Below are positions 33,443 to 37,221 of a stretch of DNA of 41,741 nt, piece by piece. Location of the stretch: IMG/VR virus record IMGVR_UViG_3300045988_117301; one strand, given 5' to 3'. How positions within the stretch are numbered: the first letter of the stretch is position 1; each line of letters opens with the position of its first letter. Made by a program: the position numbers and the translations under genes. The notes below the pieces were generated by a model. That model worked only from the letters and a program-made list of their open reading frames with translations, made no database searches and was not told where the DNA came from. The stretch is from a virus. Lineage: Duplodnaviria > Heunggongvirae > Uroviricota > Caudoviricetes.

Positions 33443-34261
33443 TCACCCCCTGAATCCTGCCGGGATCTGGCTGTAGTCCACGTTGTCGTAACTGGCTTTG
33501 AAGTACGGATCCTCACGTCTGGCTGCAGATACCGCAGGAACTTCCCAGGATTCTTCGAAATGACGATCCGGACCAAAGAACGTGACAGCCTGTTTCACAA
33601 ATTGTGTGCCGCTGTTACCCATCGCAGATACCCAGCCCGCATAGCGTTTCACACCTTCCAGCATGGTTTCGGGGTTTACCCCCTCATTCAAACGGGCTTT
33701 CCAGGCTTTGAAGGCTGCAGATTTTGAATTGCCACCAGCACGTTTGGGGTATGCCAGCCATGCCTGCTCAAACTCCGGAGAGTATTCCGGTCGGTTTGAA
33801 CGAACTCGCACAGACTCATCAGCAGATGCACCAACAGCTATTGGTTCATTGACTGGTTCTTTGACTGGTTCAAAAGAGTGACTGGTTCTGGGTGAATCTC
33901 CTGCACCACCCCCTGGTGCAACTCCTGCACTACCTGGTGAATTTGCTGCACCAGATAGTGAATTATTTGCACTACCCCCTAGTGAATCTCCTGCACCATC
34001 AAGATGAAGGAGATAGATATTACTTGAGTTACCTTTTTCACCTTTCCGGGTGACTTTTTTTACCAGTCCGGAATCACAAAGAGCCGCAATATGATTCATC
34101 ACAGAACGTTTGCTAATCTCGCACTGGTCAGCAATATGCTGGTAGCTGGGCCAGCACTCACCCTGATCGCTGGCGTTATCAGCCAGCTTGATCAGAACCA
34201 GTTTTCGCAATGGATTACCCACTCGAATTTTCATCGCTTTAACCATCAGCTCCATACTCAT
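33443..34261 (-). CDS. Replication initiator O-like protein (N-terminal HTH, Gly/Ala/Ser linker encoded by iterons)
   Basis: Start ATG 34261 with Shine-Dalgarno GGAGG and ATGA overlap; low-complexity linker GSANNSLSGAANSPGSAGVAPGGGAGDSP coincides with DNA iterons. Confidence 0.8.
   Translation of the reverse strand: MSMELMVKAMKIRVGNPLRKLVLIKLADNASDQGECWPSYQHIADQCEISKRSVMNHIAALCDSGLVKKVTRKGEKGNSSNIYLLHLDGAGDSLGGSANNSLSGAANSPGSAGVAPGGGAGDSPRTSHSFEPVKEPVNEPIAVGASADESVRVRSNRPEYSPEFEQAWLAYPKRAGGNSKSAAFKAWKARLNEGVNPETMLEGVKRYAGWVSAMGNSGTQFVKQAVTFFGPDRHFEESWEVPAVSAARREDPYFKASYDNVDYSQIPAGFRG
33849..33998. repeat. Candidate replication origin: three TGACTGGTTC repeats and five 18-bp iterons (consensus GGTGAATCTCCTGCACCA) at about 22-bp spacing, then an AT-rich stretch
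   Basis: Iterons at 33891, 33915, 33936, 33958 and 33981; located inside the O-like gene as in lambda ori. Confidence 0.6.
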
Positions 34262-34482
34262 GCTGCACCTCCGAGATGCTTCATGTTTTTTCCGGAGCAA
34301 AAGGCTATAAGCGGCATACTGATGCGGTAATTACGGCCCAGCGGTTCACAAATCACCTTCTGACATTCACGGTCAACCAGGCTGACACGTAGAACATGCC
34401 CTGCAGGCGTGGTGTACCACTGACCAGGACGAGGACAACGGAAAGTCTGATTGGTAAACCGTTTGAAAATATTCCGGATCAT
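34258..34482 (-). CDS. Hypothetical small protein (translationally coupled)
   Basis: 74-aa ORF whose start and stop both overlap neighbouring genes (ATGA overlaps). Confidence 0.4.
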   Translation of the reverse strand: MIRNIFKRFTNQTFRCPRPGQWYTTPAGHVLRVSLVDRECQKVICEPLGRNYRISMPLIAFCSGKNMKHLGGAA

Positions 34483-35630
34483 TTGCGCCCCCTTACCTCT
34501 GAAGGGTTCAGCGACAAATTTATGAGGCAGGCCAGTGCCGAAGCATCATTAATATAGTCATACAAGCTAACAGCCAGCGGAGATTCGGCTTTTGCCAACA
34601 TAGGATAAAGCTGCTGCAGCCAGACCTGATGAATTGATGAAATGTAGGAATAGAGAACGCTGGCGTTATGTGCAACGTCGCTCAGTACAGAGGGATTTGA
34701 AAGCTGTTTCTCCATCTGGTTAAAGGCATTGATGTATGCCTCTTTGAACTGGGCAGCACGTTTACCCGTGAACCCCATAGCAAGAAACGCAAAGCCGTCG
34801 CGGGTTATTTGATAGCAAGGTAGTTTGCGGCCTGTGCAATCGGTGTAATCACTCACCGAAAAATTGCGGGCAGTGAATGATGCAGAGCATTCAAGCGTGC
34901 GGATCTTTTTCAGTACATCGTCATGACGTTTGGAGAAGAAGTTGGCAACAGCCAGGGATGAAGTAACAGCCTGACCATCAACGATGGCAATTTCAGGTTG
35001 AGTGAGGGTTGGGATCGTAGCCATGATGGCAGCCTCTTTGGTGATTTTTAATAACTCACCACCAAGGCTTTCCACGACCTTATTGGTGGTGAGACGTACA
35101 GGGGTGGAAATACCGGTCACCAAAGAACCCGGCCCAACCGAAGTTGGCCCTGCACGCCCCACCATAATTTGGGCGTAATGCTGCTCATTACACAAAAAAA
35201 CCGCAAGAGCGCGGTTGTGCGCTTTGGTGAATTCCGGGTTTCCACGCCCGGCACCCGCTTTATAAGGTGCCTGAACAGTGTAACGTCCCGGAATGGCAGA
35301 ATCAATGTGCTGGTGGTCCTTCACACTCAACAAAATCATGCCTGAATTTCCACAAAGGACTAAAGCACTCATGCGGGTAGTCTTTGCGAAGATAGATAAC
35401 GCGCTGTGTTTCTGGCTCCCAACGAATAACATGGACATAAAGCCCTCTTCCGTCACGAAACCAGCGGTTAAGTTCCTGCACAACTCGCCCCCCACAGTCA
35501 GGTAAAGTTCTCTGTGGTTACTTACAGCCAGGTGATTTGGTAATCTGCATTCATACCGTAACAACAGGTGTTCAGCGACACTGACCACCAGCTGTTGCGA
35601 CAAACGGTTATTTGCCGTTAAACTGTTCAT
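34479..35630 (-). CDS. Rha-family regulatory protein with a 200-aa in-frame N-terminal extension of unknown function
   Basis: ATG 35630 overlaps cII-like stop (ATGA); internal ATG 35027 with Shine-Dalgarno AAGAGG precedes the Rha-like part (MATIPTLTQPEIAIVDGQAVTSSLAVANFFSKRHDDVLKKIR...). Confidence 0.6.
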   Translation of the reverse strand: MNSLTANNRLSQQLVVSVAEHLLLRYECRLPNHLAVSNHRELYLTVGGELCRNLTAGFVTEEGFMSMLFVGSQKHSALSIFAKTTRMSALVLCGNSGMILLSVKDHQHIDSAIPGRYTVQAPYKAGAGRGNPEFTKAHNRALAVFLCNEQHYAQIMVGRAGPTSVGPGSLVTGISTPVRLTTNKVVESLGGELLKITKEAAIMATIPTLTQPEIAIVDGQAVTSSLAVANFFSKRHDDVLKKIRTLECSASFTARNFSVSDYTDCTGRKLPCYQITRDGFAFLAMGFTGKRAAQFKEAYINAFNQMEKQLSNPSVLSDVAHNASVLYSYISSIHQVWLQQLYPMLAKAESPLAVSLYDYINDASALACLINLSLNPSEVRGRK

Positions 35631-36178
35631 GCGTTAGTTTCTCCACAGACACAAAACGCCACGACGCCCGGAGCTGCACACTCGCGGGCGTCACTCTTTT
35701 CTGGAGCGCAGAAGATTTTGTAGACCAGTGCTGCATGCTCCTGGAGCTTCGAAATTGACAGATACAACTCATCATTAATTGCTGTCTGCTCGTGTGGCTC
35801 CACGACCCCATCTTCGATTGCCGAACGAATCTGCTTTGAGTAATTCCCGATCTGTTCGATGACTTCCAGCAGGCGCTGGTTTATATCGGCGTTCTCTACT
35901 TCCTCAATTTCAGGAAGCGATACGAACACCCCACCAGCAGACTGTGCGACAGCATCCGCAATGTAGTGAGTGCCAGCCGCGCGCTGTAAAACCATTGCCC
36001 ATCCCAGCGGGAAAATCTGATCGCCATCTGCACGAAGGCGGTTGAATAAAGCGTTCTCTGTTACATCCAGCCAGTCAGCAGCTTCAGCGTAACCCCCAGG
36101 CAATGCCGCGATAGTTTTTCTGACAGCTTTCACGTACCACTCAGGTTGTTTTTCCACTTTCCAATGATGCTTACCCAC
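35627..36178 (-). CDS. CII-like / YdaT-like early regulatory protein
   Basis: 183 aa directly downstream of cro; GTG start with Shine-Dalgarno AGGAGG. Confidence 0.5.
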   Translation of the reverse strand: MGKHHWKVEKQPEWYVKAVRKTIAALPGGYAEAADWLDVTENALFNRLRADGDQIFPLGWAMVLQRAAGTHYIADAVAQSAGGVFVSLPEIEEVENADINQRLLEVIEQIGNYSKQIRSAIEDGVVEPHEQTAINDELYLSISKLQEHAALVYKIFCAPEKSDARECAAPGVVAFCVCGETNA

Positions 36179-36528: not shown

Positions 36529-37221
36529 ATGAACATAGGAAATCGAGTCAGACAACTTCGCCAGGCGAAGAACATGAAAATCGCCGATCTCGCTGAAGCA
36601 ATAGGAGTGGATGCGGCGAATATCTCGCGCCTCGAAACAGGTAAGCAGAAACAATTCACTGAACAAGCCCTGAGTAATATTGCCAGGAGCTTAGGTGTTG
36701 ATATTGCTGATCTCTTTACCTCAGACCTCAAAAGTAATACTGTATGTAAAAACAGTATTAGTGAGGATGTTGCGCAGGTGAAGGATGTATTCCGTATTGA
36801 AATGCTGGATGTCAGTGCCAGTGCGGGAAATGGCCTTATCCAGGGCGGTGATGTCATTGATGTGATTCATGCCATTGAATACAGAACTGATAATGCTGTA
36901 TCGATGTTTGGTGGACGACCAGCAAATCACATTAAAGTTATCAACGTTCGTGGGGACAGTATGTGTCCAACCATTGAGCCAGGAGATCTCATCTTCGTTG
37001 ATATCAGTATCAATCAGTTTGATGGGGATGGTATATATGTATTTGGTTTTGATGATAAAATTTACGTCAAACGACTGCAAATGATACCTGATAAACTGCT
37101 GGTAATTTCTGATAATCAGATTTACCGCGAATGGGGAATTACCAGCGAAAACGAACACCGGTTTATGGTCTTTGGAAAGGTCTTAATCAGTCAGTCACAG
37201 ACCCTTAAGCGACACAATTAA
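36529..37221 (+). CDS. cI: CI-type repressor (HTH_XRE N-terminus, S24 LexA-like autopeptidase C-terminus)
   Basis: 230 aa; N-terminal HTH (MKIADLAEAIGVDAANISRLETGKQ), C-terminal RGDSMCPTIEPGD Ser motif and downstream VKRL Lys; candidate Ala-Gly cleavage site in SASAGNG. Confidence 0.9.
   Translation: MNIGNRVRQLRQAKNMKIADLAEAIGVDAANISRLETGKQKQFTEQALSNIARSLGVDIADLFTSDLKSNTVCKNSISEDVAQVKDVFRIEMLDVSASAGNGLIQGGDVIDVIHAIEYRTDNAVSMFGGRPANHIKVINVRGDSMCPTIEPGDLIFVDISINQFDGDGIYVFGFDDKIYVKRLQMIPDKLLVISDNQIYREWGITSENEHRFMVFGKVLISQSQTLKRHN

Follow-up and report, generated by a model that had tools for sequence, protein, structure and literature searches.

The subject of this analysis is an open reading frame (ORF) of 383 codons (34479-35630, minus strand; predicted product 41.8 kDa) in a stretch of 41,741 nucleotides from the Caudoviricetes virus record IMGVR_UViG_3300045988_117301 (IMG/VR), referred to below as the window. 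In this order, the ORF comprises a YmfM-like head, an Ash stretch corresponding to a translated RNA cassette, and a Rha domain. We consider it probable, though some way from certain, that this is a nested gene of the P4 eta/kil type which carries an RNA immunity cassette of the P1/P4 type, located in the early rightward operon of a lambdoid prophage and with Rha as the controlled effector. As read from the nucleotide sequence, a promoter, the small RNA (sRNA) IsrK with its terminator and a C4 antisense RNA all lie inside the long ORF, and the C4 RNA can pair with sites in IsrK and in the leader preceding an internal Rha start codon. Selection in the extension upstream of this start codon would, we infer, preserve the open frame, that is translation as such, and not the amino-acid sequence.

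The long ORF opens with an ATG that overlaps the stop codon of the preceding YmfL/CII-like gene as ATGA (35630-35627), a coupling that a preliminary description of this DNA had noted and that is confirmed here, as is the uninterrupted run of the frame from 35630 to 34479 into the Rha domain. The probability of about 200 open codons, calculated from base composition, is approximately 4e-5, and the other two frames of the extension stretch contain 13 and 10 stops. At least 10 complete E. coli genomes carry the 1301-nt region with 100% identity, which excludes the sequencing frameshift that the preliminary description had raised and shows that the long ORF is not a sequencing or assembly error; moreover, the identical 383-aa product is annotated in phage mEp460, in phage PhiR40_1 and as RefSeq WP_001087354.1. 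The C-terminal part is a well-supported Rha domain (Pfam PF09669 Phage_pRha, residues 223-308, 106.6 bits versus 29.9, 1e-30; TIGR02681, 102.5 bits versus 45.95), with an omega of 0.14-0.15. The Shine-Dalgarno sequence AAGAGG reported earlier was found at 35038-35033, 8 nt before an in-frame ATG. This start codon had been placed at 35027, but 35027-35025 reads ATC and the ATG occupies 35024-35022 (M203), so that the extension has 202 codons instead of 201 and the short Rha product (34479-35024, minus strand) has 181 aa (20.0 kDa). The extension had also been described as having no recognisable motif, whereas Phage_ASH, the YmfM PHROG family, Rfam isrK and C4, and a nested DUF4222 gene were all found in it.

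The RNA cassette begins with a putative sigma-70 promoter (35277-35305, minus strand), composed of a -35 element TTGATT (35305-35300), a 17-nt spacer and a -10 element TACACT (35282-35277), with +1 at 35270. A generic promoter scan reported no site, because the promoter matches only 8 of 12 positions; it was recognised only via alignment with Gifsy-1, P4 and other loci. In the comparison set of 26 aligned related loci, which includes Gifsy-1, P4 and N15, TTGA(T/C) and TAnnnT occupy the same place in most loci, Gifsy-1 and P4 among them, and in this alignment the internal promoter is the equivalent of Gifsy-1 PisrK and, by position, of P4 PLE. Downstream of it lie an IsrK/seqA-type sRNA (35194-35270, minus strand; Rfam RF01394, 67 bits versus a gathering score of 50), for which a terminator scan identified an intrinsic terminator with a stem at 35216-35199 followed by a U run, and a C4/CI-type antisense RNA (35082-35169, minus strand; Rfam RF01695, clan CL00128, 83.6 bits versus a gathering score of 45) that spans positions 1-87 of the 87 in the model, both on the coding strand. 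The C4 RNA shows the expected shape, with a long closing stem, two internal hairpins, segment b' (35127-35117, minus strand) exposed in a hairpin loop and segment a' (35110-35104, minus strand) single-stranded; its minimum free energy is -44.6 kcal/mol (z -4.1), and an ACCACCA-type 3' end is visible in the sequence. C4-type RNAs of P1 and P4 are released from a longer transcript by RNase P. The Pfam Phage_ASH match (PF10554, residues 117-213, 57.5 bits versus 26, 2e-15, profile positions 1-106 of 107) corresponds to IsrK, C4 and the leader in conceptual translation.

Four target sites for the exposed C4 segments were identified, a1 (35245-35239) and b1 (35230-35222) in IsrK and a2 (35075-35069) and b2 (35044-35034) in the leader (35034-35075), all on the minus strand. 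Watson-Crick pairs are formed at 9/9 and 7/7 positions upstream, in IsrK, and at 10/11 and 7/7 positions downstream, in the leader, where b2 overlaps the Shine-Dalgarno sequence. The same four pairings are present at the same positions in 26 of the 26 loci, in which the loops vary widely and the targets co-vary with the loops, and the distance from the end of b2 to the ATG is 5-14 nt. Following the a/b site logic of P1 c4 and P4 CI, ATG 35024 is thereby marked as the RNA-controlled start. Segments a' and b' vary separately among the 26 loci, and the loops and their four targets occur in many sequence combinations; this pattern suggests that many immunity specificities recombine as a mosaic.

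In the left operon of the satellite phage P4, a 199-codon frame (eta, 8767-8168), whose start codon overlaps the stop of vis as ATGA, holds an isrK match (8692-8615) and a C4 match (8507-8420) and runs into a 65-aa C-terminal part, Kil, which begins at ...SQEAAIMATTLTP; the window reads ...TKEAAIMATIPTLT at the same place, with the EAAIMAT junction common to both. The immunity RNA CI of P4 has seqA and seqC as its targets. According to the passages on P4 in PMC10111431, interactions between CI and seqA terminate the transcript that arises at the promoter inside eta, with Kil translatable on read-through (citing Forti 1999); full-length Eta comes solely from the late promoter upstream, its translation being coupled to the preceding gene; and Eta translation prevents termination (citing Forti et al. 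1999, J Bacteriol 181:5225). CI and seqA relatives have also been noted inside 'Bro network' genes of satellites (PMC10111431). As in P4, the long ORF of the window starts by ATGA on an upstream stop and ahead of an internal constitutive promoter (35305-35277), it contains seqA/IsrK and CI/C4 RNA genes across which the frame is kept, and the short nested gene starts in frame at EAAIMAT, with the second C4 target covering its ribosome-binding site. By this alignment, ATG 35024 is the equivalent of the P4 kil start. The locus differs from P4 in that the nested effector is a 181-aa Rha-family regulator and not the 65-aa Kil, in the YmfM-like head that overlaps a DUF4222 gene, and in the host element, a lambdoid prophage with pR rather than PLL as the upstream promoter; in addition, seqA and CI are about 84 nt further apart in P4. 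Judged by sequence features, the locus thus shares every defining feature of the P4 arrangement that was tested except the nested product. The earlier proposal that a long fusion and a short Rha protein arise from nested in-frame starts gains support from this comparison, through the homology to eta/kil and the maintained frame, while the extension itself would be an RNA immunity cassette behind a YmfM-like head overlapping DUF4222, and not the unknown protein domain previously envisaged.

The isrK-orf45-anrP module of Gifsy-1 in Salmonella resembles the locus in its promoter, its IsrK with a leaky terminator, its C4-like RNA (STnc1160) and its effector, which is a phage regulator or antirepressor. 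The start of orf45 has been mapped experimentally in Gifsy-1, and IsrK acting in trans turns on translation from it, a step on which expression of AnrP, the regulator encoded downstream, depends (Hershko-Shalev et al. 2016, PMC4825925). The window contains a homologue of this first orf45 start codon, an in-frame AUG (M156, 35163-35165, minus strand) that lies inside the 5' stem of C4, reads IMVGR as in Gifsy-1 and would yield a 228-aa product; it had been overlooked in the preliminary description, where the ATG near 35027 was the only internal start named. In Gifsy-1, the frame of orf45 is closed on its upstream side, and the orf45 stop forms an AUGA with the start of anrP, which is in another frame. 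In contrast, no stop separates AUG 35165 from ATG 35024, with which it shares its frame, and this frame stays open further upstream as far as ymfL, so that a closed leader ORF joined to the effector by AUGA in another frame was not found in the window. Furthermore, the Gifsy-1 module lies behind antQ with no translated gene running into it, and AnrP is not a Rha-domain protein.

The immI operon of P1 and P7, covered by the Rfam families C4 and c4-a1b1, consists of the c4 antisense RNA, icd and ant1/ant2, and ant of P1 yields two in-frame products, Ant1 and Ant2. As in this operon, a two-loop C4 RNA in the window can pair with a1/b1 upstream and a2/b2 downstream, b2 lies over the ribosome-binding site, and the controlled gene encodes an antirepressor-type regulator. 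A separate icd-like ORF was sought between C4 and the ATG and none was found, the only open frame there being the long frame. Unlike in P1, the long frame starts upstream of the RNA genes and reads through them; to our knowledge, a long frame read through the RNA genes has not been described for P1.

Three comparisons bear on the openness of the long frame. Firstly, between the -35 element and the ATG, the ATG frame is free of stops in 17 of the 26 loci, whereas the other frames contain 2-8 and 0-6 stops per locus. The open loci have lengths from -35 to ATG of 275, 278, 281 and 368 nt, all in phase, and at least five lineages carry cancelling +1/-1 or -2/-1 indels. The out-of-phase loci are the closed ones (Gifsy-1, N15, L011, L014 and L063; L numbers are our locus labels), and since Gifsy-1 and N15 are functional though out of phase, RNA function alone does not demand phase. 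Secondly, among IMG/VR sequences chosen by the junction motif, the frame crosses the cassette without a stop in 79 of 88 distinct ones; in these, the distances from IsrK to the ATG, measured from a hidden Markov model anchor on the IsrK 5' end, fall into seven classes (240, 243, 246, 282, 285, 288 or 327 nt), all in phase, and the five sequences with a 242-nt distance are all closed. Thirdly, the head of the long ORF overlaps, in another frame, a small DUF4222 gene (35302-35481, minus strand; 59 aa, GTG start; Pfam DUF4222, 1.1e-13; phrog_1343, 3e-36). Given the DUF4222 protein sequence, the probability that the long frame stays open is about 0.04, and it is open in eight lineages. At potential stop-creating codon sites through DUF4222, T- or C-ending codons are used in 41 of 41 cases. 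In the contrast locus L004, where the Ash frame opens at an ATGA formed with the DUF4222 stop, stops occupy 5 of the 9 sites of this kind (Fisher p 6e-5). These comparisons are consistent in direction and support openness of the frame, not its protein sequence, as non-accidental.

The encoded residues behave differently from those of the Rha domain. Across the RNA stretch, all frames give omega values of 0.7-2.0, as against the low values in Rha, and in the region of overlap omega is 0.03-0.21 in the DUF4222 frame versus 1.0-8.8 in the long frame. Compensated frameshifts in database proteins swap tens of residues while the frame stays open, and the most variable residues of the Ash stretch are those encoded by the C4 loops and targets. 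Thus, Phage_ASH does not have the properties of a domain selected as protein, given its omega values, its coincidence with the RNA genes and the compensated frameshifts that it tolerates. The extension was also considered as a spurious ORF over RNA genes, with Ash as a pure artefact; the latter idea was dropped in view of the in-phase and compensated indels and the homology to P4 eta. Whether the long frame is a 'ribosome-delivery' ORF, selected only for its openness, which would serve as a P4-style bypass of the RNA immunity and make Phage_ASH a family of translated RNA genes, is a question on which we find the case evenly balanced.

The YmfM-like head (residues 1-97; 35340-35630, minus strand) matches YmfM of E. 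coli K-12 in BLASTP with 33% identity (E 7e-9). Its MNSLT start and its ATGA coupling to ymfL are both as in ymfM of e14, the gene annotated as the cell-division inhibitor SfiC (Ansari et al., bioRxiv 10.1101/2020.11.19.390815), in which a DUF4222 ORF also overlaps. The match to the YmfM family profile, phrog_1170, is limited to residues 47-95, the part that overlaps DUF4222. In e14, SfII and Klebsiella phages, ymfM ends after 112 codons, just before the replication gene, whereas this stop is absent from the window and the frame runs on into the cassette and Rha; the low identity likewise sets the head apart from e14. Residues 1-127, encoded upstream of the promoter, are nearly identical among E. 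coli phages that differ in loops and effectors.

Taken together, these features suggest the following working model. In the lysogen, the CI-type repressor (encoded at 36529-37221, plus strand) would shut pR, so that only the internal promoter fires, making IsrK and, by read-through and processing, C4. C4 would then pair with a2/b2, block the short Rha start and leave the RNA untranslated, and Rho would probably stop transcription before the replication genes. The decoy sites a1/b1 in IsrK may tip this balance, as reported for Gifsy-1, in which case the 228-aa form from AUG 35165 could be made. Upon induction or infection, transcripts from pR would be translated, and ribosomes leaving ymfL would restart at the ATGA at 35630 and cross the DUF4222 region, the promoter, the IsrK terminator, C4 and the leader. 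Their passage would keep the terminator hairpin and the C4 pairing from acting, Rha would be made as the 383-aa, 41.8-kDa fusion, and the downstream ATGA-coupled genes would be expressed regardless of C4.

Several points weigh against this interpretation. Everything said here on the translation and the start of the long frame and on C4 processing is inferred, and ribosomes in the long frame must pass an intrinsic terminator and the -44.6 kcal/mol stem. The open long frame is not essential to the cassette, given that nine of the 26 loci function in its absence, among them Gifsy-1 and N15, which have been studied experimentally. Choosing the IMG/VR sample by junction motif biased it towards EAAIMAT, and the p-values given above overstate independence because the compared loci share ancestry. 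An AlphaFold2 model built on a 14-sequence alignment gave a predicted local distance difference test score (pLDDT) below 50 at every residue; as this includes the well-established Rha domain, the model is uninformative on the extension. The least secure element is the start codon of the long form, with candidates at 35630, 35372 and 35339, and annotators differ on it: one genome annotated with the Prokaryotic Genome Annotation Pipeline (PGAP) carries a 297-aa Rha protein and a DUF4222 gene instead of the 383-aa product, and PHROG 821, of 324 aa, starts near residue 60.

The first alternative is that only the short Rha protein is made from ATG 35024, the extension being untranslated, open merely by ancestry and RNA conservation, and annotated because it is the longest ORF. 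Omega at or above 1 in the long frame across the extension, next to a strongly constrained DUF4222, is in keeping with this explanation, as are a promoter, a terminator and two RNA genes inside the extension and the loci, such as Gifsy-1 and N15, in which the cassette occurs without the open frame; AlphaFold found no fold for the extension either, in a model uninformative everywhere. However, constraints on the RNA leave unexplained why in-phase or compensated lengths are seen in open and not in closed loci, and why stop-creating synonymous codons are avoided in DUF4222 in exactly the lineages in which the long frame overlaps it. Moreover, the homologous long frame of P4 is, in the P4 passages of PMC10111431, reported as translated and needed for read-through. 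We therefore regard production of the short form alone as fairly unlikely.

A second alternative retains a long form but lets it start inside the ORF, at ATG 35339 (M98, 286 aa; GTG in mEp460, SfV and ST64B) or at ATG 35372 (M87, the 297-aa PGAP call), with the first 86-97 codons an in-frame remnant of ymfM by chance. Relatives lacking the ymfM head start their Ash frame 16-22 nt upstream of the -35 element, often by ATGA on the preceding gene (L003, L004, L009, L081 and P4), and M98, which lies 34 nt upstream of the -35 element and near the point where YmfM of e14 ends, would fit this arrangement, as would the differing PGAP and PHROG 821 starts. Yet the frame is open through all of DUF4222 in eight lineages, with stop-avoiding codons, which would be needless with a start at 35339; in the Shiga toxin (Stx) phage locus L079, from an Stx1 phage, the first ATG of the long frame is found 2 nt after the stop of the upstream gene; and on inspection of the sequence no good Shine-Dalgarno was seen before 35339 or 35372. 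An internal start of the long form thus appears quite unlikely. That the extension is a genuine folded 'Ash domain' modulating Rha, with the long fusion as a sequence-dependent functional isoform, is very improbable. Pfam Phage_ASH and several PHROG families do treat the stretch as a protein domain, and Ash-Rha proteins, with Ash function unknown, have been reported from Stx phages (bioRxiv 10.1101/2021.11.24.469858). On the other side, the match to Pfam lies over IsrK, C4 and leader, omega lies at about 1 or higher, tens of residues are exchanged by compensated frameshifts that leave the frame open, and the most variable residues are encoded by C4 loops and targets that co-vary as RNA.

If the nested-gene interpretation of the eta/kil type is correct, the P4 rule that translation of a long nested frame overrides antisense-RNA immunity would apply to widespread lambdoid prophages of E. 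coli, Shigella and Salmonella, Stx phages with Ash-Rha or Ash-Ant genes among them, and Ash, a widely annotated 'domain of unknown function', would have an explanation. If, moreover, the long frame is selected only for its openness, Phage_ASH, annotated as 'ash family protein' in thousands of genomes, would be two RNA genes in translation instead of a protein domain, and up to three nested Rha isoforms (383, 228 and 181 aa) could report the promoter and RNA state from which they originate. Under the nested-gene interpretation, the locus would also provide a model for a second, RNA-based silencing layer below the CI repressor, acting on a Rha/antirepressor-type regulator and on replication genes. 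On the sequence evidence, the novel elements would be the lambdoid setting, the in-frame YmfM-like head over DUF4222 and an Ash 'domain' that is conserved as RNA with only its openness selected. In the public records inspected (L001, L076, L096 and L097), IsrK, C4 and the internal promoter are unannotated and only protein-coding calls are given, 383 aa in three and 297 aa plus DUF4222 in one; we flag the two sRNA genes and the promoter as missing from the public annotation of these phages. A transcriptome of ST64B lists a non-coding RNA, STnc1310, near the repressor (PMC7067206), which could not be tied to this locus.

The gene preceding the long ORF (35627-36178, minus strand) was classified as YmfL/CII-like by Pfam Phage_CP76 (1.2e-14), the NCBIfam YmfL equivalog (1.8e-50) and PHROG 101 (CII-like). 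On the other side, a 74-aa ORF (34258-34482, minus strand; phrog_1153), a distant DUF4222 relative, is joined to the stop of Rha by an ATGA and shares sequence with the beginning of the replication gene (33443-34300). As phrog_1153 is also matched by the DUF4222 protein of e14 (7e-7), the replication gene is preceded here by a small gene resembling DUF4222, in the same way as by DUF4222 itself in e14 and SfII. Within the replication-protein gene, an Rfam mir-875 match (33914-33974, minus strand; 22 bits versus a gathering score of 84, E 0.23) was rejected as a chance hit to repetitive, low-complexity sequence.

The overlap between ymfM and DUF4222 raises a side question for e14 itself. The 3' half of ymfM (SfiC) overlaps a DUF4222 ORF in another frame in e14 (L095, 2323-2681), SfII (L090, 971-1329) and a Klebsiella phage (L091), and this ORF is not annotated in K-12. 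Between e14 and the Klebsiella phage, omega in the overlap is 0.02 in the DUF4222 frame versus 6.1 in the ymfM frame, while the non-overlapping 5' half of ymfM has a value of 0.32. As the pBAD-ymfM clone that causes filamentation includes 53 of the 59 DUF4222 codons, the frame responsible for SfiC, ymfM or the overlapping DUF4222, looks unsettled.

About 10 codons after the internal ATG (MATIPTLTQPE; window 34990-35024) are conserved at the nucleotide level across unrelated effectors, namely P4 Kil, the C-terminus of SfV orf37, Icd-like proteins and Rha, which would place a module exchange boundary inside the effector gene or make this stretch part of the RNA control region. Weaker C4-like matches (nhmmer, 19-41 bits) occur directly upstream of Rha homologues in distant Gammaproteobacteria, among them Marinomonas, Endozoicomonas, Aeromonas and Vibrio (L015-L040, L049, L057, L067 and L069). 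The Rha frame is not open through the RNA at these loci (6-174 nt), and the pairing of C4 with Rha therefore seems much wider in distribution than the nested long frame. In the Stx2a phage Stx2_499 (L094, 1183-2581), the Ash-regulator ORF is, according to the record annotation, broken by IS629 just past the DUF4222 region. Finally, the Symbiopectobacterium purcellii locus L013 carries two C4-type RNAs (1410-1495 and 2365-2448) about 950 nt apart, the first of which is preceded by a DUF4222 homologue (1100-1264).

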